From an uncultured virus (IMG/VR IMGVR_UViG_3300020576_004096) (Duplodnaviria > Heunggongvirae > Uroviricota > Caudoviricetes), in the IMG/VR virus record IMGVR_UViG_3300020576_004096: a stretch of DNA of 64,000 nucleotides; one strand, written 5' to 3'. Position 1 is the first letter of the stretch. Each line of letters begins with the position of its first letter. Both the position numbers and the translations under genes were made by a program. Positions 10,174-59,013 of the stretch are shown here, in pieces. The notes beneath the pieces were generated by a model, which was given only the letters and a program-made list of their open reading frames with translations, was not told the origin of the DNA and did not search any database.

Positions 10174-10346
10174 GTTTCGACTATCGAGATAGCTAGATAC
10201 CCGTGGAGAGGCGTCTCAGTTTGTTGCTGGGACGCCTTTCTATTTGTATGGTATGTATTGGGGTAGGACTAAACTTTTGGCCCAAGGGCGATAGGCAATA
10301 AGGCTGCTGGCACGTTAGGCGGCTGTTCTACGGACAGAACTGAGAA

Positions 10347-11417
10347 TTGAGGAACTGTATGGCTCGGTCGAGTGAAGGCTTGCCTCCTGATCAGGTGGAG
10401 CATTACAGCAATGAACAGCGTATCAATCTTTTGCTTCATCAGGGTACTGACAATGATGCAATCTTGTACAACTTGTGTCGTTTGAAGCATAACCTGCCTG
10501 CGATTGTTCGTGATGATGATCGTTTGAAGGTTGCGAACAAGTTTGGGGTTGTGTCGCCGAAGCATGACCCTATGTTTCGTCAGCGGCTGATGGAGCAGAT
10601 CCGCAAATGCAAGCATCGTTATCTTCTTGAATGTCAAGACATCAACGACCACCATCATCACAAGGAGGGTGACGGCAAAGCTCGCCATGTGAGCAAGATT
10701 GTTCCAACTCATAGTCCTCGCTTCAGTCTTGGGCTGAAGGGCGTTGACGATGTTCTTGGTTATGACCCTGTAAGTGGAACAAGCGGCATGCCTCGGGGAG
10801 CGACCTTGGTATTTGGAGCGCCGAAGGGGATGGGGAAGACTCGTCTTTCTGTTCAGATTGCTGCTGCTGTTGGTCACCCTGACTATCCGGCTGATGAGGA
10901 GAAGGAGCTTGATGGGGTTCTCTTCATTCAGAACGAGGAGAAGGTGGAGGTCTTTCTTGGGCGCAACGGAAAGTTGTGGACCAAGAATCACAAGATTTTG
11001 ATTTCAGACTCTGACGACCTGAATCAGCATGAGCAATTGGTTCATGATCATCGGCCTCGGTTGGTGATTATTGATTCGGTTCAGGATACTCGTCAGGCTC
11101 GTTTTTCTTCTGGCATTCCGATGATTTTGAGCAGGTACAAAGCTTGGGCATCGTCATTGGGTACGGCTTTCTGGTTGATTTCGCATGTCAATCAGAAGGG
11201 TACATTGAAGGGTGGCTCATACATTGGTCACAAGGTTGACATTGAGATGATTGCTCGTCGCAACAAGTTTGATCCTGCTGAGTTCATTATTGCTTGTGAT
11301 GAGAAGAACAGGTATGGGGCTACGGGTAAGCGGGCGGTCTTTCGTCATATTTCTGATGGGATTATTTCCGTCCCGCATGTTGGAGATTTGACTCGATTTG
11401 GCTACAAGGAGGAGTAG
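10347..11417 (+). CDS. RadA/Sms-like RecA-family ATPase lacking the Lon-like C-terminal domain
   Basis: Walker A GAPKGMGKT, Walker B VIIDSVQ, SHVNQKG, KNRYG (RadA KNRFG motif). Confidence 0.75.
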   Translation: MRNCMARSSEGLPPDQVEHYSNEQRINLLLHQGTDNDAILYNLCRLKHNLPAIVRDDDRLKVANKFGVVSPKHDPMFRQRLMEQIRKCKHRYLLECQDINDHHHHKEGDGKARHVSKIVPTHSPRFSLGLKGVDDVLGYDPVSGTSGMPRGATLVFGAPKGMGKTRLSVQIAAAVGHPDYPADEEKELDGVLFIQNEEKVEVFLGRNGKLWTKNHKILISDSDDLNQHEQLVHDHRPRLVIIDSVQDTRQARFSSGIPMILSRYKAWASSLGTAFWLISHVNQKGTLKGGSYIGHKVDIEMIARRNKFDPAEFIIACDEKNRYGATGKRAVFRHISDGIISVPHVGDLTRFGYKEE

Positions 11418-11773
11418 GAAGCCAGAACTAAACTTTTGGCGACCTTGAAAATGGGGTAAGAGAGGCTTTGCATGCCTAACTGTTTGCAAACCTTAGAGAG
11501 AAAGTTTGGAGGGAACTAAACTTTTGCGCGAAAATTGAGGTTTGCAAGGTTGACTCGTATAAAGGTACGAGTTAGAGTAAGGAACAGAACGCCGTCCAGG
11601 ACTAAACTTTCTTGGGAAAAACAGAAAGGGCGTAAGAAGAGGTTGGTTGAGGCAAAACAGACGCCTAGAACTAAACTTCTTTCGGATTCTTGAAGACAGA
11701 GACAACTGAGGGCGACGAAAAGTAGTAGTCGGTTCTTGGAAGTCAATGAAAGCCATAAGTAGGAGTAATACAA

Positions 11774-12286
11774 ATGGCGAAGGGCAACACTCAGAACGGC
11801 GGAACGGTTTCTCTGGCGGACGCGCAGGCGCAGGTCGAGGCGGCTCAGGCTGCCTTGGAGACGGCGCGGCAGTCTTCGCTCAACTCTCTTCAGGCTCGCC
11901 TGACGGAGATTGATGCGGAGCGGGCGACGGTGGCGGCTCAGATCAAGGAGTTGGGCGGCAAGGTTGGCAAGGCCACTCGCAAGTCCAGCGGGTCTCGCGC
12001 CTCCAACGACGTTTCGCTCATCACGGCGGTCGCGACGGCTCTCAGCACCTCGAAGAAGCCCCTTTCGACCACCGAGGTCTGCGAGGCGGTCAAGGCTGGC
12101 GGTTACAAGACCACCGCCGAGAACTACCCCACGATGGTCGCGCAGTCCCTCAGCAAGCTGGCGAACCTCCGCATGGGCAACTCGCCTGTCGTCGTCCGCC
12201 CCGAGCGCGGCCAGTACCGCGCCGGCAGCGGCATGACCCGCTACCTCGCCAACCCCGACAACGCGACGGTCATCGACGGCGAGTAA
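11774..12286 (+). CDS. coiled-coil plus winged-helix DNA-binding (nucleoid-associated-like) protein
   Basis: AGGAG SD; C-terminal EAVKAGGYKTT...VAQSL...RPERGQY; followed by terminator. Confidence 0.6.
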   Translation: MAKGNTQNGGTVSLADAQAQVEAAQAALETARQSSLNSLQARLTEIDAERATVAAQIKELGGKVGKATRKSSGSRASNDVSLITAVATALSTSKKPLSTTEVCEAVKAGGYKTTAENYPTMVAQSLSKLANLRMGNSPVVVRPERGQYRAGSGMTRYLANPDNATVIDGE

Positions 12287-12310
12287 TCCAACAACGTCCG
12301 TCGTCCCTTC

Positions 12311-12341
12311 AAGCCCCTGCTCTACGGAGTGGGGGCTTTTT
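12311..12341 (+). terminator. intrinsic terminator
   Basis: AAGCCCCTGCTC...GAGTGGGGGCTT + T run. Confidence 0.75.
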
Positions 12342-12422
12342 CTTTTTCCCTTGGTAATCGAGAACTAAACTTTCCGAATAGGGTTGAAAGGCGTAAGCTT
12401 CACCAACGGAGATACCGAGCCA

Positions 12423-14063
12423 ATGCCTAACGTTACGGTTCCCAAGTCGTTCTTCGTCAAAGAGCGCCGCATGTATTCGAACTGGCAGTTCGCTTTTTGG
12501 CGCGAACTTTTTCAGAACTCGACGGACGCCAAGGCTTCTCGCATTGACGTTGAAATTGTTAAGAAGGACAACGGAATCATTGGAGTTTCCTTCGACGACA
12601 ACGGCACCGGCATGAGCCGAGAGGTCTTGGAAAACGTCTATTTCAGCCTTGGTTCAACGACCAAGACGGGCGGCTCAACGGTTGGCGGCTTTGGCCGAGC
12701 CAGGCTGTTGACTTGCTTCTCCATGAAGAACTACACGATTCATACCCAGGACAACTTGGTTCAGGGCGAGGGCGGTTCTTACGACATCGCAACGGTTGAT
12801 TTGCGTCATGGCTGCTTGCTTCGAGTTGAAATCGAGGACGAAAGCTATGACCGCTTGTACGGCGAGCTTGATAACTACCTCCGTAGCAGCCAGATGTACT
12901 GCGACGTTTATGTTAATGGCGTTCGCTTCGGTCATTGGTGTCACCGCCGTCAGCTTACTCGTCAACTTCTTGTTCATAACGCTCCTTTTGCGAACGTTTA
13001 TGTTAACAAGTCGGCTGCAAATCATCGGCTGCTTGTACGAGTCTCTGGCGCGATCATGTACAGTCAGTCGATTGGGGCCAAGGCTCAAGTCATCGTTGAG
13101 GTTGAGCCGAGCTTGAGCCGAGAGGTTTTGACGGCAAATCGAGACGGCATGCACTCGATGTACTCTTCTGTTCTTGAGGCATTTGTGCAGGAGCTTGCCG
13201 TTGATACGGTTTCGGCTCTGAAGCCTCGGTTCAAGAAGAAGGACGCCACGATCAAGGGTCGCGGGCTTATCTTCTCGGTCTCGCCGAAGGCTGGAACTAA
13301 ACTTCCGAAGAGGGAGATTGAGCCTGGCGCTGAAGTCAAGGTTCTGGCGGCGGCTCGCGCTTCGGGTTCGGTTTATACAAGGCCTGTTGAGGGCGAGGAG
13401 CCTGTTCGTCGGTCTGCGATTTTGGATACGACAACGGTTCGCGCTGCGGAAATCATTGGCGGGGTTTTGGGCGGCGGCGAGATGCTTGACCGTCTTATGA
13501 ATACTCCCGCTGTTGAAACGATTCCGAGCCGAGTCGGTAAGAAGTATCACAGCGGTTTGCCTGACATCTTCATGGACGACGATACGGAGAACGAGAAGAT
13601 TCGGAAGGTCATTGATCTTTACAATCCTGAGAACTGGATTGTTGCTGCTCAGGGCGACACAACTTATAACAAGGGCTTTACCATGTACAAGCTCTTGATG
13701 TTGTGGAAGGTTGCCTGTCAGTATGCGATTGACGCCATGATGAAGAAGCATGAGTCGATTGCGCAGGTTGTTTGGGGGATTGGTTGGACGTTCTCGGATA
13801 CTGCTACTGCGAAGCACATGGCTGTTGACGGCGGTTCAGCGTTGCTGTTGAACCCTGTTGATAAGGACGGCAAGCTTCGGTACGGTCTGCGGGACCAAAA
13901 GGACCAGAAGAAGCTCATGGCCTTGGCAAAGCATGAGGTTGCGCATACGATTCATGGTTGGCACAATGAGGAGTTTGCCTCTCTGCTTACTGACATTGAC
14001 GAGTATTTTGACGAACGGGAGGTCTATCGGGCGATGCGGGAAATGTTGGACAGCCTCAACTAG
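12423..14063 (+). CDS. GHKL (HATPase_c) ATPase fused to a C-terminal HEXXH zincin-like domain
   Basis: RELFQNSTDA, DDNGTGM, GGFGRA; C-terminal KHEVAH...HNEEF. Confidence 0.75.
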   Translation: MPNVTVPKSFFVKERRMYSNWQFAFWRELFQNSTDAKASRIDVEIVKKDNGIIGVSFDDNGTGMSREVLENVYFSLGSTTKTGGSTVGGFGRARLLTCFSMKNYTIHTQDNLVQGEGGSYDIATVDLRHGCLLRVEIEDESYDRLYGELDNYLRSSQMYCDVYVNGVRFGHWCHRRQLTRQLLVHNAPFANVYVNKSAANHRLLVRVSGAIMYSQSIGAKAQVIVEVEPSLSREVLTANRDGMHSMYSSVLEAFVQELAVDTVSALKPRFKKKDATIKGRGLIFSVSPKAGTKLPKREIEPGAEVKVLAAARASGSVYTRPVEGEEPVRRSAILDTTTVRAAEIIGGVLGGGEMLDRLMNTPAVETIPSRVGKKYHSGLPDIFMDDDTENEKIRKVIDLYNPENWIVAAQGDTTYNKGFTMYKLLMLWKVACQYAIDAMMKKHESIAQVVWGIGWTFSDTATAKHMAVDGGSALLLNPVDKDGKLRYGLRDQKDQKKLMALAKHEVAHTIHGWHNEEFASLLTDIDEYFDEREVYRAMREMLDSLN

Positions 14064-14252
14064 AAGTGACAAGTTTTCCACAACTAATCCCGACTGCAAA
14101 AATCTTCAGAACCTTAGCCCTATCTTGCTTTTACAGACGTTTTCATGTACGATATCTTCGTTGCCTCGGCGTTGGCGGCGAAAGAGAACCTTGATTTCCT
14201 GACAATGGGCTAGACGGACTTAGCTCATTCGCTGATCAGAAAAGGATTGCTT

Positions 14253-14813
14253 ATGCCTTTAATCAGCCCAAAAGACGAGAGCCTTCTGGAACCTCTTGCA
14301 GAAGAGTTGACCAGGAGGCTATCGTCGAATACCGACTTAACGGTTGACCGCTTCAAACTGCGGGAGTTTATCTTTTCCCGCGCAAAGCGTGAAATCTTGG
14401 ACCAGCATCCTGATTGGGCCGAGAGCGGAAAGCTTCAACCTGGAGCGCTGATGCGTCAGTCGCAGGTCAATGCTGTCATTGATTTGCAAAACTTGACTCC
14501 TGAGATGTTTGAGGAGATTACCGAATTTTTCAATGAACCGACTGAGCCGGTCATTGAAGTTCCTTCTCCAATTGTTTTCCAGCCCAAGCTCAAGGAGAAG
14601 CAGGTTCTCCGAGAGGTTGACCAGAGGGTTGGTCCATTCGGAAAGACCCGCTTGCACCTGGCGGTTGACGCGCAAAACTTTGATGAAGTCAAGCGACTTG
14701 TTGAAGTTGAAGGCGCAAGCGTCCATGTAAAGGACAATGCAGGAAAGACTCCTTGGGACCGCGCTAACCTCGCAGATTTCACAGAAATCGCCACATATTT
14801 GGCGAACTTCTGA
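14253..14813 (+). CDS. ankyrin-repeat-containing protein
   Basis: GKTRLHLAV...VKRLV...GASVHVKDNAGKTPWD. Confidence 0.7.
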   Translation: MPLISPKDESLLEPLAEELTRRLSSNTDLTVDRFKLREFIFSRAKREILDQHPDWAESGKLQPGALMRQSQVNAVIDLQNLTPEMFEEITEFFNEPTEPVIEVPSPIVFQPKLKEKQVLREVDQRVGPFGKTRLHLAVDAQNFDEVKRLVEVEGASVHVKDNAGKTPWDRANLADFTEIATYLANF

Positions 14814-14960
14814 ATCCGAGACCGAACAGGGGTCGTATAACAGAGAAGACTTCCTACATTTGCCGTAGATTGAGTCCTTTTCACTTGCAAATCATTGCAA
14901 CCTCATGTACAAGGTTCATAGTATCTCTGAGAGAACGGGAACTCTCAAGAACGAAACGCC

Positions 14961-15527
14961 ATGATAACCATGAGTCCAGTCCGTCCAGGGGAATCGTTTA
15001 TGGAAACTGAGCGACCCAAGAATCATCAAACTGATTCTGGCGCTCTCCATTTTGAGCTTGTTTGCGATAAGAAAGATGTATACGAACATCTTATCGCCTT
15101 GCGACAGCAAGCCCAGGACAGAGCGACCAGGGTAAGTCCCATTCACCGCCTTTACGGAAAGGAGTGTTTGGTCGAAGGGGCCGACGACCCCCTTCTCGAT
15201 GCAAAGCTCTTAGCCCAAGGCATAATGCTTCACAATAACAAGATTGTGATTGTGAATCCGCAAAGCATTGCTGTCTTTGCAGTTGAGCTTAGCAACGGGG
15301 CCTTTGTCTACTTTGGCTTTACAACTTACCCGCCAACCATCAACCTTGACGGGAAGGAAATCCGGGTTCCTCGTAGCGGCAAAGCTGTTTGGTCAGGTCT
15401 TTTGTTCATGAATGAGGATTTAGGTCACGATTCGTACAAAGAGTTATACGACCTTGTTCAGTTTCTCGAAGACAGAGGCGTTCAGGTAGATATGAACGAG
15501 AAGCTCGCCTCTCTGGAATACGTCTAA
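14961..15527 (+). CDS. hypothetical protein
   Basis: ORF track. Confidence 0.6.
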   Translation: MITMSPVRPGESFMETERPKNHQTDSGALHFELVCDKKDVYEHLIALRQQAQDRATRVSPIHRLYGKECLVEGADDPLLDAKLLAQGIMLHNNKIVIVNPQSIAVFAVELSNGAFVYFGFTTYPPTINLDGKEIRVPRSGKAVWSGLLFMNEDLGHDSYKELYDLVQFLEDRGVQVDMNEKLASLEYV

Positions 15528-15588
15528 GTCTTCGAGAAGCCACAGTTTGGCTTGCCAAGACTAAACTTTCTGCTACGATATGTAGCAT

Positions 15589-16044
15589 ATGAAAGTCGAT
15601 TTGCCGAAGCAAGCTGAGAGCGAGAAGGTGCTTTGTCACCTCTCGGACGACTGGAAAAGTCGCAAGGCAGAGAGTCCCCGCAGTAAGGGTGAGACTCTAA
15701 GCTACCGTCATGGGGTTGCCGCAACGCCGAACTCATGGACGTTGACGGAATACCGGGGCGACCTTGCGTTCAACCAAGTTTACGCAACATCATTTGCGGA
15801 CCTGGCTCCGTCGTTCAGAACGATTGCTGCTGTTGATCCTATCGAGGGCATGAAGCGAGTTATTGCTTCCCTTGAAAAGATTACCGGCAAGAAGATTGCG
15901 CTTTCCAATAGCGGCGCAGGAGAAATTGAAAAGGCTATTGAAATGGGGCGACAAGTTGACGCTTTCTTCGAGGTTGACTACGCTATCCATGACAAGGTTC
16001 GAGAGCGCATCTTTGGCGACGGCGGAACAGAAGACGAATCATGA
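15589..16044 (+). CDS. hypothetical protein
   Basis: ACTAAACTT 20 nt before ATG. Confidence 0.7.
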   Translation: MKVDLPKQAESEKVLCHLSDDWKSRKAESPRSKGETLSYRHGVAATPNSWTLTEYRGDLAFNQVYATSFADLAPSFRTIAAVDPIEGMKRVIASLEKITGKKIALSNSGAGEIEKAIEMGRQVDAFFEVDYAIHDKVRERIFGDGGTEDES

Positions 16045-16490
16045 AGATTAGCCAGTACATCAAGACCATCGAGGTTGCTGACCCTGACAATCCTGGTCAG
16101 GTTATTCATCTCGATATCCATAAGGTGGACGGCGGTTTCATTGGCGTTGACGCTTCTTTCACGGAAGAGGTCGCTAACTATATCGCAAACCCTTATCAGG
16201 ATTGCGAGCTTGTGAAGTTGACCGATTCTTTGGGTAACGACGAAGAGATTGACCCTCCGCTGGAAGAAGACGAGCTTGTTGGTTTCTTGCGCATTTTGGT
16301 GGCGATTGACCGAACCTCTCAGCTTTTGGACGAAAAGCAGCGAGAGCTTCTTCTGAGCGGCATTGCAAAGAGAGCCGGACTAACGCTTGATCGATTGAGC
16401 GTTCTGTTTGGTCTTGCAAAGCAGTGTTTGGACGGAGCGGCGTTGTATCAGTTCCAGAAAGTTTTGAGAGATGAATCCAAGCCTGAATGA
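16041..16490 (+). CDS. hypothetical protein
   Basis: ATGA coupling. Confidence 0.65.
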   Translation: MKISQYIKTIEVADPDNPGQVIHLDIHKVDGGFIGVDASFTEEVANYIANPYQDCELVKLTDSLGNDEEIDPPLEEDELVGFLRILVAIDRTSQLLDEKQRELLLSGIAKRAGLTLDRLSVLFGLAKQCLDGAALYQFQKVLRDESKPE

Positions 16491-17139
16491 TATTGTGATT
16501 ATTGGCGACGTTCATGGGAAGTGGCCCATGCTTAAGAACGTCTGCGATAAGTACGCGAAGAAGACGGTTCTTGGTCTTGGCGACGTTGGTATTGGCTTTG
16601 TTGGAAGCCGAGAGCCGAAGCTGCCTGAGAACTTTCGTTTCTTCCGCGGAAATCATGACAATCCAGCAGTTTGCAGAGCGCATCCGCAGTATGCTGTCGA
16701 GTACGGCATGTGGAACGGTCTGTACATTGTTGCTGGCGCTGACTCTGTTGATAAGAAGTGGAGAAAAGAGGGCATTGATTGGTGGCCTGACGAGCAGCTT
16801 GGTCGAGAGGTCATGGAGCTTGCGCTTGAGGATTATATCAAGACCAAGCCTGATATCCTGATTTGCCATGAGGCTCCTTTCAGGATTCATCAGATTGCCA
16901 AGGCTGCTTCTTGCACTTATGACCGCAACAACGAGGGTTGGGGCGAGCCAAAGGGAAATTCCACAGCTTTCTTGCTTGATTCGATGATTCAGGCTCATAT
17001 GCCTAAGATGCTCGTACATGGGCATTGGCATAATCCTCTCATCTATAAGCAGTGGGGCTGCGTCTTTATCTCCTTGGGAGAGCTTGAGGCGCTGGATTTG
17101 GAAGCGGCGCTGGCGTACTACAAAATCAAGCTGAGCTAG
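16471..17139 (+). CDS. calcineurin-like metallophosphoesterase
   Basis: GDVHG, GDVG, RGNHD, HEAP, HGHWH motifs. Confidence 0.85.
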   Translation: MNPSLNDIVIIGDVHGKWPMLKNVCDKYAKKTVLGLGDVGIGFVGSREPKLPENFRFFRGNHDNPAVCRAHPQYAVEYGMWNGLYIVAGADSVDKKWRKEGIDWWPDEQLGREVMELALEDYIKTKPDILICHEAPFRIHQIAKAASCTYDRNNEGWGEPKGNSTAFLLDSMIQAHMPKMLVHGHWHNPLIYKQWGCVFISLGELEALDLEAALAYYKIKLS

Positions 17140-17176
17140 AGTTCACAAAATTCTTTGGTGGAAATTGAAGGAGTTT

Positions 17177-17205
17177 TTGACTTCTAGCCGAAAAGAGAGT
17201 ATCAT
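17177..17205 (+). promoter_or_regulatory. sigma70-type promoter for Leu leader/tRNA-Leu cluster
   Basis: TTGACT-17 nt-TATCAT. Confidence 0.65.
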
Positions 17206-17263
17206 GATTACCATGAAGACCAACTTCGTCAGCTTGTTATGCGGCCTCCTACTCCTTACCTAA
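17204..17263 (+). CDS. Leu-rich attenuator leader peptide MITMKTNFVSLLCGLLLLT (alternative start 17213)
   Basis: six Leu codons TTG TTA CTC CTA CTC CTT just before the stop and the antiterminator. Confidence 0.8.
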   Translation: MITMKTNFVSLLCGLLLLT

Positions 17264-17325
17264 AGGGATGGAAGTCGTTGCGCAATCGCACATCGAACCC
17301 CATCCCTAAAAAGATGGGGTTTTTT
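17264..17325 (+). terminator. attenuator: antiterminator AGGGATGG and terminator AACCCCATC/GATGGGGTT-TTTT
   Basis: 17264-17271 complementary to 17300-17307, overlapping the terminator 5' arm. Confidence 0.8.
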
Positions 17326-17335
17326 CGTTAATATC

Positions 17336-17409
17336 GCTCATGTATCCCAACTGGCAGAGGAGCAATCCTGAGAAGGTTGTTGTTGGAGGTTCGAATCCTC
17401 TCATGAGCA
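17336..17409 (+). tRNA. tRNA-Leu(GAG), short variable loop
   Basis: cloverleaf; loop CTGAGAA. Confidence 0.85.
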
Positions 17410-17413
17410 TTTA

Positions 17414-17497
17414 GGCCTTGTGGCGGAATTGGCAGACGCGCTACCTTGAGGTGGTAGTTTCCGTAAGGAAGTGCAGGTTCGAGTCCTGTCAAGGCCA
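17414..17497 (+). tRNA. tRNA-Leu(GAG)
   Basis: cloverleaf with long variable arm; loop TTGAGGT. Confidence 0.92.
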
Positions 17498-17515
17498 TTT
17501 GATAACTGAATATGC

Positions 17516-17597
17516 GGCCCTGTGGCGAAATTGGCAGATGCGTCAGACTTAGGATCTGGTGCCGAAAGGCGTGGAGGTTCGAATCCTCTCAGGGTCA
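17516..17597 (+). tRNA. tRNA-Leu(TAG)
   Basis: loop CTTAGGA; long variable arm. Confidence 0.92.
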
Positions 17598-17610
17598 TTT
17601 TAGATTACAG

Positions 17611-17694
17611 GCCCCTGTGGCGGAACTGGCAGACGCGCTTGACTCAAAATCAAGTTCTCGCAAGGGAGTGGAGGTTCAAGTCCTCTCAGGGGCA
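17611..17694 (+). tRNA. tRNA-Leu(CAA)
   Basis: loop CTCAAAA; long variable arm. Confidence 0.92.
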
Positions 17695-17699
17695 TTCTC

Positions 17700-17776
17700 G
17701 TCCAAGTAGCACAATTTTGGCAGATGCAGCTACCTCAAACGTAGTACGGTGATGGGTTCGAATCCCTCCTTGGACA
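17700..17776 (+). tRNA. tRNA-Leu(CAA), short variable loop
   Basis: loop CTCAAAC. Confidence 0.8.
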
Positions 17777-17800
17777 TTCTCGCTCCTAACGGAGAAGCTC

Positions 17801-17876
17801 GCTCTTGTAGCCCAACCTTGGCAGAGGCGCTAGACTCAGAATCTAGATGTTGCTGGTTCGAATCCAGTCAAGAGCA
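17801..17876 (+). tRNA. tRNA-Leu(CAG), short variable loop
   Basis: loop CTCAGAA. Confidence 0.88.
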
Positions 17877-17892
17877 TTCAGAACTAAACTTC

Positions 17893-17966
17893 GGCTCCAT
17901 AGCACAATCGGCAGATGCAGTTGATTTAAGGTCAAAGGGTTGAGAGTTCGAATCTCTCTGGAGCTA
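17893..17966 (+). tRNA. tRNA-Leu(TAA), short variable loop
   Basis: loop TTTAAGG. Confidence 0.8.
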
Positions 17967-17968
17967 TT

Positions 17969-18388
17969 ATGACAGCGCTTGCTTCTTCTCGTTCTCATAC
18001 TCTTAAGCTAGCAACCGCTGTTCAAAGCGAAGCGGACCTCCGTAAGGAAAAAACTCTTTCTGGATTTCAACTGATAAAGTCCGCGAGGAGGCCCGATTTG
18101 GACCTTATTGCGGACGCTTTTTCTTTTGCGCAAGACAGTCCTCTTCAATACAAGGTCATTGACCTGATTGCGATTTATCGAAGCGTTCTGGAAATGAGAG
18201 ACGATATTCACTCTTCCAGAGTCTCTACCTGCGATAAGTTCCTGGACGAGGTAGAGAAGTGTCTCAATCACTTCTTGGACCATAAGACTTTGCCTGAGCG
18301 CAAAATGACTGTTTCTCAAATCATTGGCCCCGTGGCGAAACTGGCAGACGCAACGGACTTAAAATCCGTAGCCCGTAAAAAGGCGTAG
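17969..18388 (+). CDS. hypothetical protein between tRNA genes; 3' end reads into tRNA-Leu(TAA)
   Basis: ORF track. Confidence 0.45.
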   Translation: MTALASSRSHTLKLATAVQSEADLRKEKTLSGFQLIKSARRPDLDLIADAFSFAQDSPLQYKVIDLIAIYRSVLEMRDDIHSSRVSTCDKFLDEVEKCLNHFLDHKTLPERKMTVSQIIGPVAKLADATDLKSVARKKA

Positions 18389-18411
18389 GGGTTCAAATCC
18401 CCTCGGGGCCA
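18326..18411 (+). tRNA. tRNA-Leu(TAA)
   Basis: loop CTTAAAA; long variable arm. Confidence 0.92.
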
Positions 18412-18462
18412 TTTCACTTGCAACAAGTCCAAGACTAAACTTTCGGCATAGAGTTCTAGACT

Positions 18463-50591: not shown

Positions 50592-50615
50592 ACTTTCGCG
50601 CAAAGGGCGAAGGTT

Positions 50616-50891: not shown

Positions 50892-50956
50892 CGCTTTGCG
50901 CTATCGAAATGGTTGATTGACGACGGAACTAAACTTTCAACACTGCGCTGATAGGC

Positions 50957-51211
50957 ATGGGAAATCCAAATGCCAACAGCCTTGAAGCGTCCGCAACCGA
51001 ACAGAAGCCTGAGACTCTCGCTCCTCATGGGGCGATTGAAGTCAACAAGCATGACCTCAGCGAAGACGGCAAGCATTGTCTTGTCACACTGCGCAAGCCT
51101 GGGGAGAATGGTTTGACCATGACCAACGAGGAAGCCGATTCCTTCTGCAAGTGGTGGGCTGCGAATCGAACCTCCTCGGAATACATCCTCAAGTCGATTA
51201 CGATTGCTTGA
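50957..51211 (+). CDS. hypothetical protein
   Basis: motif 20 nt before ATG. Confidence 0.7.
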   Translation: MGNPNANSLEASATEQKPETLAPHGAIEVNKHDLSEDGKHCLVTLRKPGENGLTMTNEEADSFCKWWAANRTSSEYILKSITIA

Positions 51212-51257
51212 TTCCAACACTGCGCGGAACTAAACTTCCTGCGCAATGAACAAAGCC

Positions 51258-51758
51258 ATGAGCAATCCCATTCCCATGAACAACGACAAGCACACTCTCG
51301 GCAAGGCAGTTCTGAGCGGCAGGCTCAATGCCATCATCCGTCGCATGGACCGCGCCCGAGACGCTTACAAGACCTCTCACAAGACAACGAAGGACGCTGA
51401 GACCGGCAAGACCTCTCTCACCATCTTTCAAGAGGACATGGCAGCGGCGCAGGCTGAACTCGAAGCCTTGTTTCGCGACTTGAACGAAAACCTCGCCGAA
51501 GAAACAACGCTGGGCCGCGAATACAACAAGGAAACCTTTGACGCTGCACTGCGCGTCGCTCGCGGCAAGGTCTTGCAGCGGTTCAGTAACTTCCCGATTG
51601 CCGCCGCACTGCTTGAGTGTTTCCTCATGTACCTCGAAACCCAACTCGACCTCGGCGCGCATTTCCTCAACCTCCGCAAAGTGGCGAACGTCGAAGACCG
51701 AGCCAAGAGCGGAAACCAGTTCTACAACCTTGACGGCGACCCCAAGAGCAAGGGCTGA
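51258..51758 (+). CDS. hypothetical protein
   Basis: motif 20 nt before ATG 51258. Confidence 0.7.
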   Translation: MSNPIPMNNDKHTLGKAVLSGRLNAIIRRMDRARDAYKTSHKTTKDAETGKTSLTIFQEDMAAAQAELEALFRDLNENLAEETTLGREYNKETFDAALRVARGKVLQRFSNFPIAAALLECFLMYLETQLDLGAHFLNLRKVANVEDRAKSGNQFYNLDGDPKSKG

Positions 51759-52484
51759 GAACTAAACTTCCTCGGCAACTCCAAAGAGCATGGATTGGTA
51801 GAACCAACAGGAAACCAACCGGCAGGTTGGGTGTATGGTTGGGAGCCTAGATACCCCTTGTTGGTAGGTCAAGCCAACTGGTCGGAACCCGAACGAGACT
51901 CGGGAGGTAGGTATACCCGGGCGGCCCTAAACAAGCCGCCCTTATGTTTGCGCCCTTCGTAATCGTTATGAGTGAAATGATCGGATCGACCCTCGATGAT
52001 CTTCCCATCTATTAATTGGTCACTTAAGCCACACAACCGCACACAATTTGCCTAAAAGTGACCTAACGACTGCTGGATTTAGTGGAAACCGGGTCAGGGT
52101 TCCCAGGGTTTCGTCAAATCCAGAGCGGGCTGCCCAGGGTTCCGAGACCCCGCAACGGGCTGCCTCAAGGCGGAGCCGCTCTGAAGCCCCTAACGAAGAT
52201 GTAACAGCGGGCTGAAACGGCAGAACTAAACTTCCAAACCCATACAACCGCCAACCAAACCCAACCGCCTAGCGCAATCCGTTAGGGAAAGATTCGTATA
52301 CCAACAGTATACAGCAGGCAGAAATCGTTATGAGTGATACAGGTTCAGCGAGCAGCCCGATTGCGAACCCGAGCAGGTAGCGAGAACTAAACTTTGCGCG
52401 CAGAATCAATCCTCAACAACGGAAACAACCGCCGAGTAGGACTAAACTTCCGTTGGAGAACTGAGAAGCAGAAAGGAAAGCCCC

Positions 52485-53213
52485 ATGAAACTGATTACTC
52501 GCAACGAACTCCGAACTCTCCTCCTCGCCCAAACGGGCGCAACCATCGTTTCGCTCGTTTCGGTTGTCGAGCCGGACCTGCGGGCGAAGGACGACAACGG
52601 CAACGCAAACCCCTTCATGGCGGGCCGCAAACTCGCCGATGGGTTCACCATCGCCAAGACGAACAAGGCGACGGGCCGAATCGACACGGACTACAACCGC
52701 GAAGTCGAGAACCAACTGCGCAAGGAAATCATCGAGGAGCGCATGGCGGCGAACATGCCCCCGCTTCCGACCAACGAACTCGAAGCCGAAATCGAGGCGC
52801 GCTTCCGCAAGGGCGAATCTTGGCATCGCCCCATCATGGCGGCGAACGGGCGGCCTACTCCGCTCTCCGTCAACAAGAAGGACGGACCCAACGACGACGG
52901 CGCGGCCTATCTCCGCATCATCATCAGCGCAGAAGGGGACAGCGAATTCCTCAAGTATGAGGACGGCACAACGGTTCCGAGCGAGAACGTCATCCCCTTC
53001 AATCAGAAGAAGAAGCCCTACGCCAATCAGGGGACGAAGCAGCCGCGCCAGATTCGGACCTACGGCTTGGAGAACATCGTCGAGTTTACCATGAACGGCG
53101 AACGCTACCGAGTCGCGGACAACTTCCTCTCCCGCCCCGAGGCAATGAGGCACCGAATTTGGGATATCGCCGAGCAGTACCTCAACGGCGAGCGCAGCAT
53201 GGCGAAGGTCTGA
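52485..53213 (+). CDS. hypothetical phage protein
   Basis: AAGGA SD downstream of motif. Confidence 0.75.
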   Translation: MKLITRNELRTLLLAQTGATIVSLVSVVEPDLRAKDDNGNANPFMAGRKLADGFTIAKTNKATGRIDTDYNREVENQLRKEIIEERMAANMPPLPTNELEAEIEARFRKGESWHRPIMAANGRPTPLSVNKKDGPNDDGAAYLRIIISAEGDSEFLKYEDGTTVPSENVIPFNQKKKPYANQGTKQPRQIRTYGLENIVEFTMNGERYRVADNFLSRPEAMRHRIWDIAEQYLNGERSMAKV

Positions 53214-53417
53214 AACTAAACTTTCATACCTGCCAATCCAACAAACTTTCATGGGCGACCAACGCCGAACGGGGACCAAACCGTATCGGCGTTCGGTCTT
53301 TGGTAAAGCGAAATGGTTATGAGTGAACATTCTGAGCCGTCGCCGAACTCAGAGCAAGTGAAAGAATCAGGACTAAACTATCGGCGCAACTCTGATTGTT
53401 GAAAGGAAGCCCAACCC

Positions 53418-53816
53418 ATGAAAGCGCAGAACTCCGAACATTACATTCCGATTGGTCTTGACGACGCAGCGAGCAACGCAGCAACGGCGGTCGAAGAAGC
53501 GACCGATATCCGAGTCAAGGTCAAGAACGACCCGAGAACTCGCGGACAGAGGGACCATGTTGTTTTGCTTTGGAACGACGACGAACATACCGAAGTGTTC
53601 GTTATGGCGATCCTCATGGAAGTCTGCAAAATGACGCAAGAACAAGCGTTTGAGACTGCCATGAAAGTCCATAACGAGGGCAAGGCCCCCGTTTGGCGCG
53701 GCTTGCTCGAACCTTGCGAACTGAAGCGCGAACAAATCGCAACCTTCCGAGACAAGTTTATCGTTGAGAATGGAGGCCCCAACCTTCCCCTCAACGTCAC
53801 CGTCGCGGAAGCGTAA
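53418..53816 (+). CDS. clpS: ATP-dependent Clp protease adaptor ClpS
   Basis: VVLLWNDDEHT..FV...VHNEGKA.V...E.CELK. Confidence 0.85.
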   Translation: MKAQNSEHYIPIGLDDAASNAATAVEEATDIRVKVKNDPRTRGQRDHVVLLWNDDEHTEVFVMAILMEVCKMTQEQAFETAMKVHNEGKAPVWRGLLEPCELKREQIATFRDKFIVENGGPNLPLNVTVAEA

Positions 53817-53955
53817 CTAAACTTCCAGAACAATGAACTTTCATGGGCGAGAGCGTTGAGCGAACTGCGGCGGTTCGCTCCGCTCTCTTTAACCTTTGAT
53901 AATCGTTATGAGTGAACCAGTCGCCGACTAAACTTCCGCGCAAAAATTCAAGAGT

Positions 53956-54147
53956 ATGAACAACAACCCTCCCAATCCCATGCGTCCCATGCCTCAAGGC
54001 CCCCAGAACGTCCACAGCGTTACCCTCAACGGTCAAACCAAGACCGTCACCGGGGCGTTCAGCAGCGACCACGCCGCTCGCCAGGCGTTTGGGAGCAACT
54101 GGAACCGGGCGACCGTCCAGACGACCCAAACGAAGAAGTGGATGTAA
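53956..54147 (+). CDS. small hypothetical protein
   Basis: motif 20 nt before ATG. Confidence 0.65.
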   Translation: MNNNPPNPMRPMPQGPQNVHSVTLNGQTKTVTGAFSSDHAARQAFGSNWNRATVQTTQTKKWM

Positions 54148-54182
54148 GGCAGAACTAAACTTCCCAACAGAAGGGGAAGAAC

Positions 54183-54530
54183 ATGCCGAACGTCAAGAAG
54201 AACTACCCGAAACTCGCCGATATGAAGGCCGCTAACCCCGGTTTCTTCAACAAGGCCAACAAGTCTTTCTTTGGCGACCAGAAACATCGGGCGTATCATG
54301 GCTACCTCATTGTTGAGGGAACAACGCCGCACAGCGACGGCAGCAAGAGCAAGCGCATTGCCGTCTATCGGTTCGCTCCCGAACTGAACAAGGACGACCC
54401 ATTCTTTCACGTTACTCTCGCCGAGGACTCTCGCAACGTCGATAGGGTTAAGGAACTCATCAGCGAGTACGAGAAGAATGAGTGGCCGACGAAGGCCGCC
54501 CGAATCGCAGCGGAAGTTAAGAAGGCGTAA
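54183..54530 (+). CDS. hypothetical protein
   Basis: motif 20 nt before ATG. Confidence 0.7.
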   Translation: MPNVKKNYPKLADMKAANPGFFNKANKSFFGDQKHRAYHGYLIVEGTTPHSDGSKSKRIAVYRFAPELNKDDPFFHVTLAEDSRNVDRVKELISEYEKNEWPTKAARIAAEVKKA

Positions 54531-54561
54531 CTAAACTTTCGCGCCAAGAGAGAAACGTACC

Positions 54562-54906
54562 ATGAAAGACGCAAAGGGCAACAAGGTCGGTATCGGAACT
54601 CTCCTCTACGCCAATCTCGGAGACTACGGCCCCTGCGCTCGAATTTGCGACTTCAAGACAGACCCATTCGGAAGGGGTTACGATTGCGCTTATCTCGAAT
54701 GGGGAACAACAATCACCGACGAGTTTGGGAACAAGACGTTTATCCCAATCTATAGCAAGCCGCAACCAATCAGCCTTGAAAGCCTTAAGAACTCCTATTG
54801 GAGCGCAACGAGGACTTTCTGGCAAGAACTCGCCCAACCGCTTCGCAAGTGGTGGTACGAATTCCGCGCCGAACTCAAGAAGGCATTGGCAACTTACAAG
54901 GACTGA
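54562..54906 (+). CDS. hypothetical protein
   Basis: follows motif. Confidence 0.7.
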   Translation: MKDAKGNKVGIGTLLYANLGDYGPCARICDFKTDPFGRGYDCAYLEWGTTITDEFGNKTFIPIYSKPQPISLESLKNSYWSATRTFWQELAQPLRKWWYEFRAELKKALATYKD

Positions 54907-54910
54907 ACTC

Positions 54911-55132
54911 ATGGCAGCAACACCAATCAATCAGAAGCAGCCAGGCGACTCGGGCTACGTTTACTTCTACAACAGCCAACGAATCGAACTCTACGCCAAG
55001 AACGCAGCAGACGCAAAGGACAAGGCGGTGGCGTACTTCAAGCCGCCCAAGAGCAAACGCCATATGGTTCATGGCATGATTGCCGAGGACAAGGACGGCA
55101 ACGCCGTCGTCCATTCGACCGCTTCAATCTGA
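54911..55132 (+). CDS. small hypothetical protein
   Basis: AAGGA SD. Confidence 0.65.
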   Translation: MAATPINQKQPGDSGYVYFYNSQRIELYAKNAADAKDKAVAYFKPPKSKRHMVHGMIAEDKDGNAVVHSTASI

Positions 55133-55261
55133 AGAACTAAACTTCAGAACCAGCCCAAACTTCAATCGGTTTCGGTTGTTCAATTCCGAAACTAAACTTT
55201 CGGCGCAGAACAGATAGGCATGAAGGGAATGAACCCTTCGCCTAACTGAAAGGACCGAATC

Positions 55262-55615
55262 ATGCCTCTCGACCGCAACCAACTCGCCAAACTCATGCAG
55301 AACCCCGCCCAAGCCCTCATGGAAGCGCAGCAAGCCGAAATCGCGGCAATGGCGGGCGGCAACGTCCCCGTCCAACTCCCCGGCATGACGCTCAAGGACA
55401 TCGAGGACGAACTTCGCAAGCGCGCCGCCGCGGCCGAACAATTGGGCGACCGAACCATCGTTCGGACGACCGAATCCCTCATCGCCATGAATCGCCAATG
55501 GATGGCGGGCGTTGCGGGCGGCATGGTTGCCCTCCAGAACCAAGTCAACGAACTTCGAGCCGCCAACGCCAACGGCGGCAACGTCATCGAGGTCAAGCCC
55601 AAGAAGAAGAAGTAA
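55262..55615 (+). CDS. helical hypothetical protein
   Basis: AAGGA SD. Confidence 0.7.
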   Translation: MPLDRNQLAKLMQNPAQALMEAQQAEIAAMAGGNVPVQLPGMTLKDIEDELRKRAAAAEQLGDRTIVRTTESLIAMNRQWMAGVAGGMVALQNQVNELRAANANGGNVIEVKPKKKK

Positions 55616-55851
55616 TCCTCCAGCCGCCAAGCAGGGAGCCGACAATCGGTAATCCCCCAATAAGGGCCGCAAGGCCCTTTGGCGGTTTAAGAACTAAACT
55701 TTCTGAACCATGCCGAGACGTAAGGGACGAGCAATCCGCCAGCCGCAAGGTTGGCTCTCGGGCCAACGCAGCGTAATCGTTATGAGTGAATCAGGTTCGC
55801 CGAGGAACCAGGTCTATGCGAAACTAAACTTCCCAAACATTAAGAACTAAC

Positions 55852-56073
55852 ATGCTCGACCCCTTCGCCGCTACCGTTGAACATGGCAAAGTCATCATCG
55901 CCAACATCGAGGCGAATCTCCGAAGGAATCGCCAGCCCAAGCCGAAGCGTCCAACTCCCCAAACGCCCTACAAGGGTTCATGGGCGCACAGCGAACAACT
56001 CCGCAAAGAGCGAGGCGAGCCGCTCAAGACTCCGCCAGCGTTTGACAGCGGTTGGGTTACGCTTAAGTCGTAA
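55852..56073 (+). CDS. small hypothetical protein
   Basis: motif 20 nt before ATG. Confidence 0.65.
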   Translation: MLDPFAATVEHGKVIIANIEANLRRNRQPKPKRPTPQTPYKGSWAHSEQLRKERGEPLKTPPAFDSGWVTLKS

Positions 56074-56101
56074 CTAAACTTCCGCGCAAAGAGGGATTGG
56101 T

Positions 56102-56260
56102 ATGCCGCTCAACAGAGAACAATACAGTAACCTTTGGGACGAGGGCTACAACGCTTTCTTTGATAAGAAGCCCTCAACGTCCTGCCTTTACGCCGAAGGG
56201 TCCGAAGAGCGCAAGGCATGGATGGAAGGTTTCAACTACGCCGAGGAAACGCAGAAGTAA
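56102..56260 (+). CDS. Rmf/CrpP-fold small protein (52 aa, below ORF-track cutoff)
   Basis: EGYNA...SCLY...RKAWMEGF matches the RMF pattern RGYxA...CPY...RxxWxxGW. Confidence 0.6.
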   Translation: MPLNREQYSNLWDEGYNAFFDKKPSTSCLYAEGSEERKAWMEGFNYAEETQK

Positions 56261-56289
56261 ACTAAACTTCCGCGCAAAGAGGGATTGGT

Positions 56290-56517
56290 ATGCCGCAAGA
56301 CAATCAAAAGCCCAAACTCTCCGACGATGACCTTGTATGGTCAATGGTTGTGTTCATGGAAGAACACGGAGGCGAGCGCATGCTCAAAGCAACCGCAATG
56401 GCTTGCAAACTCATCTCCGAGAAAGCCAAGACCGAACTCGACGGAACTTCCGCTCAAGTTTGGGAAGAAGCACGCAAGAGAGTCGCTTCCGCCGCTCAAT
56501 ACTTGGAGGAGAACTAA
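56290..56517 (+). CDS. small hypothetical protein
   Basis: motif 20 nt before ATG. Confidence 0.7.
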   Translation: MPQDNQKPKLSDDDLVWSMVVFMEEHGGERMLKATAMACKLISEKAKTELDGTSAQVWEEARKRVASAAQYLEEN

Positions 56518-56541
56518 ACTTCCTGCCTACCCTTGTTAGGC

Positions 56542-56730
56542 ATGGAAGCAATCCAAACAAGAACTTGCGAGGATTGCAGAGAACCCTTTGAGGTACTCGA
56601 CCCAACATGCAAGGCCGAAGTCCGTTGCATTACTTGTCAAGTTTTGTTTCGCTTGACGGGTAAGACCGCTCATCAGCGGTATATCGAGGAACTTAAGAAG
56701 CAACAGGAGGAAGCCCATGCCTCTGTCTGA
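56542..56730 (+). CDS. small zinc-ribbon protein
   Basis: CEDC...CITC; motif 20 nt before ATG. Confidence 0.65.
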   Translation: MEAIQTRTCEDCREPFEVLDPTCKAEVRCITCQVLFRLTGKTAHQRYIEELKKQQEEAHASV

Positions 56731-57025
56731 ACAAGAAGCCGCCAAAATCCGAGTCGAATCGAAGCGCGCCAGCAAGGGAATGGGAAACCTCATTCTCCCC
56801 ATCCTCCGAGAGCCGCCCTTCCCAACTTCCCTCAAGGCGGGCGACATCGTTGGATTCCGCTACATTGTCGCAGGAGGCGAGCGTCCCCTCTACTTCAATG
56901 ACAACGGTTGGGAAGTCGTTGGGTTCGCCCATGACCCCAAGACGAGCCGCCAGAACCTTGTGGTGGTTCATAAGGAGGACCGAACCATCAACATCGAACT
57001 GAAGGACATCACTTCGCGGAACTAA
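56717..57025 (+). CDS. hypothetical protein
   Basis: AGGAGG SD. Confidence 0.7.
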   Translation: MPLSEQEAAKIRVESKRASKGMGNLILPILREPPFPTSLKAGDIVGFRYIVAGGERPLYFNDNGWEVVGFAHDPKTSRQNLVVVHKEDRTINIELKDITSRN

Positions 57026-57049
57026 ACTTCCTGCCATGACCTAAATAGC

Positions 57050-57295
57050 ATGGCAAACTTCTCCCTCATCAACATCCGCAAAGAGAGCAGCGACGGAACA
57101 ATCATCGAGGGAGAGTGGATTCAGAACGCCGTCGCCTGTACGCTCGAAGAAGCAACCCAACGAGCCATCGGTTACGAGCGCAAAGTCTGGGGCGTTCAAA
57201 CCCATGTTGGAGTCGTCGCAGAAGTCCCCTCATCAACGCCGCAAGGAGTTTGGGCAAACCTCAAGAGACTCGACCAGAGCCGTAGGTATTCGTAA
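57050..57295 (+). CDS. hypothetical protein
   Basis: motif 20 nt before ATG. Confidence 0.7.
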   Translation: MANFSLINIRKESSDGTIIEGEWIQNAVACTLEEATQRAIGYERKVWGVQTHVGVVAEVPSSTPQGVWANLKRLDQSRRYS

Positions 57296-57481
57296 CTAAA
57301 CTTTCCGCGCAAAAGGGAAAGTCAACGGAAAAAGCAAGGTTGCCGCGAGACTGGCGGCAGCAGCGGACGGGAGTTAGTCGCCCGAGCCGCACTTGTTACT
57401 TAACAACGCCTAATCGTTATGAGTGAACGCCCGCTGCCTTACGAACGCCGAAACTAAACTTCTCTCTTAAATAACAAGAGC

Positions 57482-57781
57482 ATGGCAAAGCAGAAGACCG
57501 AATTCTACCAGCACAAGGCCGAGACTTGGGACGCCAAGACTTGCGAGAAGAAGGCCAAGCATGTCGCTAAGGACGGTCTTGGAACGCCTTACCCTTTCAA
57601 GGGCTACATCGGCTCCTCCACCTCAATCCCTCCCAAGTACGGCGCAATCCGCTACAACGGCGGATGCGTCAGAGAGGGAGAGTGGTATCAGGGCGAATTC
57701 TTCCCGCTTCCCAACGTCGCCGAAGGGTTCGTGATTCAGCAAGTCCCGAACTGGGGCTACCGAATCGTCAAGGAGTCTTAA
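57482..57781 (+). CDS. hypothetical protein
   Basis: motif 20 nt before ATG. Confidence 0.7.
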   Translation: MAKQKTEFYQHKAETWDAKTCEKKAKHVAKDGLGTPYPFKGYIGSSTSIPPKYGAIRYNGGCVREGEWYQGEFFPLPNVAEGFVIQQVPNWGYRIVKES

Positions 57782-57819
57782 GAACCGAGAACTAAACTTC
57801 TCGCGAAAGAGAGAAAGCC

Positions 57820-58047
57820 ATGAGCAACGCAACCAAGCCCAAGTCCAAGAAGTCCAAGCCCCGCAAGTCAGCCAACGTCCAACTCGGTGTTTACATCGAC
57901 GTTGGGGATATCGTCCGAGTCGCTGGACCCGACAAGGCCCAGAAGATGGTGGACAAGATTCTCCGCTTCGTCGGCAACGACAAGACCCGAGTGAACATCC
58001 CCAAGAAACTCCGCAAGACCCTCGCAACCGTCGCCGGGAAGAACTAA
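57820..58047 (+). CDS. small basic protein
   Basis: motif 20 nt before ATG. Confidence 0.7.
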   Translation: MSNATKPKSKKSKPRKSANVQLGVYIDVGDIVRVAGPDKAQKMVDKILRFVGNDKTRVNIPKKLRKTLATVAGKN

Positions 58048-58372
58048 ACTTCCCAACCTTACCAGTTAGGTAAGAAAGGACTCTTACCCATGAAAATCAG
58101 CGAAATGTCATTCGGTCAATTGATGGACGCCTTTGAGGTCGCCAAGATGGAGGGTGACGCCGAACTCATGTTGACCCTTTGGAATGAACTCAGCAACCGC
58201 CGAGGAGCCAGAGCCGCATGAAGTATCAGACCGACGCAGACCGCGACGCCCAAGCCATCCAGAACTGGGCCGAACAGCAAGAGAAGAAGCACAACCGCAA
58301 GGAGAGGCAGCGGAAGAAGAAACGGGGGAACTAAACTTCCTGCCGTCGCTTGTAAGGAAGAAAGGACAGCCC

Positions 58373-58666
58373 ATGAAAACCGCTCGCAAGCCATTCCGAA
58401 CCTTCCTCAAGAACAGCAAGACCCACAGCCTCGAATTCGTCATCTCCCTCGTTCAGCGCATCAACCCCGAACTCTCCTACGACGACGCCAAGGCCGTCGC
58501 CCTCAAGGTCCACAACAACGGCAAGGCCCTCGTCGCCAAGGGCAGCAGAGAGGCTTGCCGCAAGGCCGCTCGAATCGTCCGAGAGGCGGGAGAGGACGCA
58601 GCGGCCCTCCGCTACCTCAGCCTCAAAGGGCAAGGCCCCATGAAGACGACCATCGACCGTAACTAA
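58373..58666 (+). CDS. divergent ClpS-like protein
   Basis: FLKNSKTHSLEFVI...VALKVHNNGKALV..GSREAC. Confidence 0.7.
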   Translation: MKTARKPFRTFLKNSKTHSLEFVISLVQRINPELSYDDAKAVALKVHNNGKALVAKGSREACRKAARIVREAGEDAAALRYLSLKGQGPMKTTIDRN

Positions 58667-59013
58667 ACTTCGGTCGCAAAGAACAACAGAGTCAGACAAC
58701 GGAACGAAGGGTCTTAACAAAGGAGCGAGCCATGAAGAACTAAACTCCCACCACCAAAGACTCACACAGATTTGATTGTCTCAGCAACCCCCAGCCATGT
58801 TGGTTGGGGTTTGCTATTTAATAATGGCGCAGTGGAAGACTCCTCACTCATAACGATTTAATTTTGTTGGAAAGGATACCCCACCCCCCAGCCCGCCCCT
58901 TCTCTAATCTAAAAGATACCTAGTTTGCGGAGGTAGCCTAAGGCATGCGCAGCTACGGAAAGACTCTTTGCCGATAATATACCTGAAAGCTTTGGGGTAT
59001 ACGAGGGATAATT

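Follow-up and report, generated by a model that had tools for sequence, protein, structure and literature searches.

The 64,000-nt stretch of DNA analysed here (the window, one strand of the uncultured virus record IMGVR_UViG_3300020576_004096) carries a short block, ACTAAACTT, which recurs before small genes and after which, in about half of its copies, a start codon begins exactly 29 nt from the first base of the block. This raises the questions whether the block is a promoter element, where its RNA would begin and what would read it. An earlier note on the window had proposed a single-block phage promoter for mostly leaderless mRNAs. Following motif statistics, comparison with related records and domain searches, the correct account is probably a promoter element whose RNA begins at motif+29 and is in many cases a leaderless mRNA, with corrections regarding the RNA polymerase (RNAP), the leaderless fraction and the features of the spacer. 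This account fits best because a pyrimidine/purine (Y/R) step is found at the same position in copies without an ATG, Shine-Dalgarno (SD) leaders run from +29, orthologous genes switch between leaderless and leadered starts there, and copies stand behind strong terminators.

A repeated block at a fixed distance from start codons

The window contains 85 exact copies of ACTAAACTT on the plus strand and one on the minus strand (shuffles: mean 0.45, maximum 3). A purine precedes and a pyrimidine follows the block in 85/85 copies, which extends it to R-ACTAAACTT-Y. Only three plus-strand copies with one mismatch exist (41678, 53372 and 58739), each differing at the last base, and the exact and near-match copies together form the set of 88 window sites used below. 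The array of RACTAAACTTY spans positions 2039..58747 of the plus strand, with a copy density per 4 kb that climbs from 1 to 12 before an abrupt end at 58747. It had been thought to begin at 10268, which is too late in view of copies at 2039 and 4801, and to lie entirely on the plus strand, which is true of the 85 copies and not of the single one at 7658..7666 on the minus strand; the latter has no ATG at +29 and is retained in the relative G001. The genes of the array are small and uncharacterised, with a GC content of about 50% and mostly without an assignable family, and 20 tRNA matches lie among them.

Of the 85 copies, 43 have an ATG at +29 and none has one at +28 or +30, with a background of 1.3% per offset (p ~1e-57). 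The frames opened by these ATGs comprise at least 52 codons in 40 cases and just 3-9 codons in the other three. A pyrimidine (C or T) directly precedes the ATG in 43/43 cases, compared with 30/58 for the other long ATG frames of the window, and an SD match of at least 5 nt at usable spacing is present in 7 of the 43 spacers (at least 4 nt: 13/43). Thus the count of about 40 such ATGs given in the earlier note, all eight positions cited for them and the frequent lack of an SD were confirmed, while leaderless copies make up about half and not most of the array. A typical leaderless unit is found at 24536..24569 (+), where the block (24538-24546) is followed by a 20-nt spacer that is first GC-rich and then A-rich, a pyrimidine and the ATG at 24567; the spacing is the same in G001, G005 and G002. 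In a typical leadered unit (52439..52487, +) the block is followed after 20 nt by a C/A step at +28/+29, AGAAAGGA and an ATG at +44, and this layout recurs before the orthologous gene in G002, G007 and L186.

Conservation of the spacing in related phages

Repeated motif matches were obtained in four records by a pattern scan of viral contigs. The relative G002 (98% complete at 494 kb) aligns collinearly with the window, with proteins about 35-80% identical. Its genes include those for terminase, portal, major head protein, DnaE, gyrase and RtcB, which identifies it as a tailed jumbo phage; the window belongs to a clade of tailed phages of about 500 kb. In G002, 63 of 64 plus-strand copies of ACTAAACTT fall within 140-327 kb and are densest in a small-gene island of 50% GC (genome 40% GC), about 28 copies of GCTAAACTT are distributed in the same way, and the virion and DNA-polymerase regions are almost free of ACTAAACTT. 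The record G008 extends the right end of the window and has the same motif.

The register of 29 nt is kept where the block itself changes. For the G002 block RCTAAACTT an ATG stands at +29 in 29/93 cases. The block of G007, GGCTAGACTT, occurs as 36 TAGACTT copies, mostly GGCTAGACTTTC, with an ATG at +29 in 22/36 and no CTAAACT in the array, and by a flanking gene G007 is nearer to the window than G002 (85% vs 68%). Four metagenome contigs (L181-183 and L189) carry the GGCTAGACTT variant in the same register. In the contig L186 (43% identity in a shared gene) the block is WCACTRAY, with an ATG at +29 in 5/9 sites and a Y/R step at +28/+29 before the downstream gene in two more; a scan for further phages of this type yielded 17 loci, and fixed spacing was repeated in none of them. 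Orthologous genes keep the ATG at +29 in 12/15 pairs with G002, 9/10 with G005 and 9/9 with G007, the spacers sharing 2-15 of 20 bases; judged by these pairs, the register behaves as a physical ruler and not as a copied cassette.

The host would belong to the Planctomycetota. Among the best 120 hits, the named cellular homologues of the phage sigma described below come from Sedimentisphaerales and Phycisphaerae only, and the pilin-like phage genes match DUF1559. Among cellular genomes, none of them from a Planctomycete, the motif was matched in 17/301 of the phylum of a Lentisphaerae metagenome-assembled genome (MAG), not above control, and in 0/5 other MAGs.

Evidence for a transcription start at +29

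In copies without an ATG at +29, a Y/R step occupies +28/+29 in 27/45 cases in the window, 29/63 in G002 and 10/14 in G007 (background 18%). Genes led by an SD have a purine at +29 in 7/7 cases in the window, 11/14 in G002 and 3/3 in G007, and the SD starts 0-10 nt later. The four SD-led sites named in the earlier note (46679, 52441, 58043 and 58330) are indeed of this kind, save that 58330 has A/A instead of Y/R at +28/+29. Four orthologue pairs differ by an SD leader inserted after +28. The gene at 35089..35120 (+) is leaderless in the window and SD-led from +29 in G002, with its ATG at +44; the switch at 39204 is alike (ATG at +42), that at 44237 is reversed in G007, and at 42264 the ATG lies at +31 compared with +45 in L181. 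At 43496..43661 (+) a tRNA-like RNA, whose anticodon arm carries a long insert, begins exactly at +29 of a block; its 5′-end according to Rfam (43525) agrees with the position read earlier from the sequence, and the arrangement is conserved in G002. Moreover, a GC hairpin with a T run lies directly before a copy at 44194..44245 (+), and likewise before 10268, 12364, 28482, 36841 and 40019. Strong terminator-like hairpins end just before 6/88 copies compared with 7/600 random sites, and before 9/92 compared with 13/600 in G002. Taken together, transcription probably starts at +29.

Several observations weigh against this account. Three tRNAs start upstream of +29, namely a tRNA-Leu at +10 (17883..17966, +, with +29 inside the tRNA), the tRNA-Lys at 31007 (+12) and the tRNA-Val at 21436 (+17), and must therefore derive from upstream read-through. 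The excess of terminators is lost at a loose threshold (8/88 vs 8/150, not significant), and random sites, not gene ends, served as its controls. By duplex energy, the spacers before an ATG pair with the anti-SD more often than other spacers (23/43 vs 12/45), an excess which is not significant by exact 5-nt match (7/43 vs 3/45, p 0.19); SD-like spacers fit a second use on read-through RNA, but also a reading of the block as a −10 hexamer. The RNA contigs are spread evenly over 25-29 of 30 bins and carry no information on starts. The L186 variant is known from a single 3.3-kb contig with 9 sites. As for the factor that would read the block, the recognition helix of the FliA-like phage sigma is identical in genomes with TAAACT and TAGACT, G005 carries the motif without having the second sigma at the syntenic position, and the sigma54 DNA-binding domain (PF04552) was found in 0/5 records.

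Anatomy of the putative promoter

With +1 set at motif+29, the block occupies −31..−20 and is followed by a GC-rich stretch at −20..−14 (59-66% GC) and an A-rich one at −13..−4 (47-51% A). The fine structure of the spacer consists of a weak R at −13..−11, W or A at −7..−5, Y at −1 and R at +1. TANNNT is present in at most 3/86 spacers at any offset, and a canonical −10 box (6-8 nt before the start) was not found. Upstream of the block, between its −45 and −4, neither a TTGACA-like −35 nor an extended TG stood out by position, and a consensus scan stayed at chance level. TGGCAC-N-TTGC does not appear in the base matrix of the block, and the FliA pairing TAAA-N15-GCCGATAA occurs at the canonical distance in one G002 site. 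The earlier description of a block without a visible −10 box, unlike sigma70, sigma54 or sigma28 promoters and with a Y/R start, is upheld by these results; a spacer without any other signal is not, since −13..−4 is A-rich after a GC-rich stretch.

No inverted repeat or internal hairpin (N4-type, covariation) was detected in the block beyond composition by a chimera test, which was marginal in the window (1-20/200) and negative in G002 (124-148/200), and the idea of a hairpin or cruciform was rejected. The triplet at −27..−25 is TAA, TAG or TGA in the three block variants, and it serves as the stop codon of the upstream gene in 29/88 (window), 22/92 (G002), 7/36 (G007) and 1/9 (L186) copies. 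This may be an overlap constraint and not a function, both changes being A-to-G transitions.

An ordinary sigma70-type promoter served as control. At 17177..17263 (+), TTGACT-17-TATCAT is followed 7 nt past the −10 box by the ATG of a leaderless frame and is conserved in G002; canonical promoters and leaderless starts thus exist in this phage. The same locus (window 17177-17325, G002 296928-297010) encodes a Leu-rich peptide of 16 codons (15 in G002); next come a T-run hairpin and, directly after it, eight tRNA-Leu genes (17336-18412), an order that looks like leucine-sensing attenuation of this tRNA-Leu array.

Search for the factor that reads the block

The multisubunit RNAP domains beta and beta-prime (PF00562 and PF00623) were found in 0/5 records, with 14/14 controls positive, and no catalytic DxDGD-type RNAP motif was found in the relatives scanned, including the 98%-complete G002. 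PF00940, for a T7-type enzyme, gave 0/5 with its control positive nowhere, and a very divergent RNAP is conceivable. With no detectable RNAP in a 98%-complete relative, the host core enzyme together with a specificity factor would be used; of the two readers named in the earlier note, a phage RNAP or a specificity factor, the latter is thus the more likely. No match to the MotA/AsiA family was obtained in the phage, and Pfam and PHROGs scans of the G002 frames, most of which are without a family, gave no activator able to bind both the element and sigma region 4 (453 references to G002 frames, of 556 called, in the Pfam scans). Plasmid and phage searches by tblastn returned distant sigmas or nothing.

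G002 has two sigmas. A FliA/WhiG-like sigma occurs throughout the clade at 58-68% identity, with a TATACT promoter upstream in 8/8 loci and the recognition helix SESRISQMH. A second promoter class of G002 consists of GNCGATA sites that match the FliA −10, lack a −35 box and have the ATG at +13..+16 (e.g. 138231, 177774, 192179 and 439500); among 256 sites, 8 true starts lie at +15 and at most 3 at any other offset. This leaderless signal is clear only in G002 and weak in the fetched parts of G007-G009. The FliA-like sigma likely reads GNCGATA rather than the block.

Four other candidates were tried and rejected. The second sigma of G002, a divergent 302-aa protein, has one homologue only and is absent from the syntenic gap of G005; the helix-turn-helix (HTH) gene at 59968-60552 of the window has no tblastn match in G002; and a 1008-aa protein with sigma3-like repeats lacks these in 4/4 homologues, its Atlas leads being below 0.8. 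The 242-aa product of the most widely conserved array gene (52485..53213, +) is modelled (pLDDT 92) as an Sm/Hfq/WYL-like barrel with insertions at weak fold scores (Z 5-6), has no PDB match by Foldseek and no HTH, and is a lead only. At 246033-246941, G002 encodes an orphan sigma-like protein in which region 2 is of the FliA type and two HTH units are apparent; in the protein database it forms one cluster only.

Proposed mechanism and alternative explanations

The block would act as recognition element in a jumbo-phage promoter used before replication (early or middle). A protein would bind RRCTAAACTTY as double-stranded DNA at about −31..−20 and keep the host RNAP at a fixed distance, the A-rich −13..−4 would melt without a consensus −10 box, and the RNA would begin at the purine of the Y/R step 29 nt after the first A of the block. 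In about half of the copies this purine would be the A of an ATG, giving a leaderless mRNA; in the remainder, the start would be followed by an SD leader of 13-19 nt or by a tRNA or small RNA. The reader would be a phage-encoded adaptor like PafBC or MotA, which replaces the contact of sigma region 4 with the −35 box half to one helical turn nearer to the start; a host factor is a further possible reader, although the phylum searched for the motif showed no enrichment. Since nearly every small gene is preceded by a copy of its own, which often gives the stop codon of the previous gene, the copies may double as borders of cassettes that are gained and lost; joints of gain and loss among relatives often lie near copies (30214, 31240/31241, 40969 and 40012, not scored against a control).

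If the block were a sigma70-type −10 hexamer, TAAACT and TAGACT would represent TANNNT with a GC-rich discriminator, and the host enzyme would start at +14..+16, leaving some 14 nt of leader before the ATG. In favour of this, TANNNT accommodates both main variants, whose difference falls at a tolerant position, GCGC and then A-rich sequence follow the block, Y/R steps are found at +12, +14 and +16 in 18-23 of 43 spacers, and the phage has canonical TANNNT promoters, so that the host sigma reads such sites and no new factor would be needed. However, the L186 variant has no TANNNT, the N positions are invariant within a genome, −35 and TG elements are missing, and neither the invariant leader length nor the Y/R step at +28/+29 in non-ATG copies nor the SD leaders after +28 would have a reason, which makes a −10 hexamer unlikely. 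An RNA-level ruler is likewise improbable. Here a phage nuclease or RNA-binding protein would bind ACUAAACUU on long transcripts and cut, or load ribosomes, 20 nt downstream at Y^R to give leaderless monocistrons. Fixed distance, Y/R step and strict strand bias would be explained without a sigma, the product of the best-conserved gene in the array folds in an Sm/Hfq/WYL-like manner (Z 5-6 only), and all three variants hold a stop codon at −27..−25 that ends the upstream gene in 29/88 copies; yet copies stand directly behind strong terminators, the tRNAs that start at +10 and +12, in an arrangement that G002 has retained, would be destroyed by a cut at +29, and 34/88 copies have no gene end nearby upstream.

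It is very improbable that the FliA-like sigma reads the block as its −35 element, a proposal that builds on the likeness of CTAAA to the −35 sequence TCTAAAG given for Pseudomonas aeruginosa FliA in PMC12784957, and on the conservation of this sigma, its TATACT promoter and its FliA-like helix across the clade. The P. aeruginosa element spans −36..−30, 7 nt more distant from the start than the block; at +35..+37 there is no Y/R peak, and a start at +36 would omit the ATG. CGATA stands at the canonical distance in one G002 site and near it in one window site, the helix is unchanged where the block changes, and the other FliA half, GNCGATA, occurs alone before other genes with an ATG peak at +15; the geometry would have to be compressed and non-canonical. 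A recombination site, integron-like or a homogenised repeat, without a role in expression is scarcely credible. It would agree with gain and loss joints near copies, the concerted change at all orthologous loci in G007 and the stop codon inside the block, but inverted repeats beyond composition and, in the Pfam scans, integrase families are missing, and the placement of Y/R steps and SDs is a signature of expression. An integron-like GTTRRRY noticed by eye in a few spacers was dismissed, there being no complementary partner and no integrase.

Returning to the promoter with its start at +29, a wider reading is conceivable, though doubtful: a promoter class without any −10 sequence, in which one double-stranded element near −25 would act as a TATA-box-like ruler for the host RNAP. 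Its reader would be a phage factor from an undescribed family, with a specificity that would have switched between lineages (TAAACT, TAGACT, CACTGA) while all copies followed, and the clade of Planctomycete jumbo phages would employ three promoter classes, mostly for leaderless mRNA. If true, a start set to the base from −25 alone would show that a bacterial RNAP can be positioned, and the DNA opened, in another way than is known. In the search for the reader, the natural block variants could serve as an existing specificity series. The units, compact and orthogonal, are candidate promoters for Planctomycetes, a group in which promoters and phages have received little study (no paper was found in the literature search). 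If one of the alternatives holds, the fixed-length leader without an SD or the RNA ruler would itself be unusual.

Other features of the array region

A tandem duplication at 33216-33979 places 75 nt of shared sequence over two motif copies (33270 and 34032) and is not present in relatives from the metatranscriptomes X1, X2 and X4. Near the end of the array a second repeat, AATCGTTATGAGTG, lies between genes at 51961, 52323, 53901, 55775 and 57412 (+) and at 58858 (−); it is repeated in G007 too and is a candidate operator or origin iteron. The sharp right border of the array (58872-59535) contains the repeats GTCACTTAAAATT...AAGGATACC with a conserved TGGCGCAGTGGAAG element just upstream, also in G007 and G008, and is a candidate origin, terminus or small RNA. 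The tRNA-like RNA (43525-43661, 137 nt plus CCA) has a structured insert, was missed by ARAGORN and found by Rfam, and has its G002 counterpart at 317530. Candidates for host takeover under motif control are two ClpS-like adaptors (53418-53816 and 58184-58666), a DnaJ-domain protein (34061-34369) and a pilin-like protein (48464-48934). Outside the array, many unrelated proteins begin with M-x(0-2)-W-[YF]-K/R (window 61172, 62350-63462 on the minus strand and 63547; 16 frames in G002), possibly a capsid-targeting or injection signal.

Comparison with known systems

Promoters of the sigma54 type have the −24/−12 consensus TGGCAC ... TTGC. The block resembles them in an upstream element near −25 and weak GC at −17..−14, but has no TGGCAC or fixed TTGC, and the phage has no sigma54 domain. 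Among the literature matches listed, in a search with subscription papers and supplements outside its scope, there was no phage-promoter description of ACTAAACTT or of this clade and motif. FliA/sigma28 promoters, for which P. aeruginosa fliC with (−15)GCCGATAA(−8) is an example (PMC12784957), share the CTAAA likeness, and the phage has a FliA/WhiG-like sigma and GNCGATA at −15..−8; the block, however, is 7 nt too near to the start, and no GCCGATAA is paired with it. GcrA boxes are located at −20 or −30 (PMC9976885). Single phage-specific blocks are also described for phiEco32, whose gp36 element AATGTA is at −11.5 (PMC12276001), and for AR9, which uses its own RNA polymerases and an element 6 nt before the start (PMC5312081), yet both lie in the melted region, whereas the present block is 20 nt upstream of the start.

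In T4 middle transcription, a phage without RNAP redirects the host enzyme by MotA/AsiA through its own upstream box (PMC2988021). The dozens of copies are a common trait, but the MotA box is centred at −30, is tolerant and needs an excellent TATAAT, whereas the block is centred near −25, invariant and without a −10 box. The closest positional match is sigma adaptation by mycobacterial PafBC, where a specific element is contacted at −28..−23 in promoters that lack a −35 box and use host core and housekeeping sigma (PMC8635444); with the start placed at +29, the block would likewise lie between −35 and −10 and replace the −35 box. PafBC promoters retain a canonical −10 box, however, which is missing here, and no HTH-WYL activator was found in the phage, only a weak WYL/Sm-like fold without HTH. 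The array itself recalls the PeSL cassettes of RB49 and phi1, repeated promoters before ORFans in a plastic region that begin at the upstream stop codon and mark gene gain and loss (PMC2839356), and the present repeat also stands before ORFans in a plastic region at borders of gain and loss (breakpoints not counted against a control). PeSLs are consensus sigma70 −35/−10 promoters with a stem-loop in each copy and an SD, while the block is non-canonical and half leaderless, with a terminator-like hairpin upstream of 6-8/88 copies and an internal one in none. Although it fails one defining feature of each, the block would work like a sigma adaptation and sits in an array similar to that of the PeSLs.

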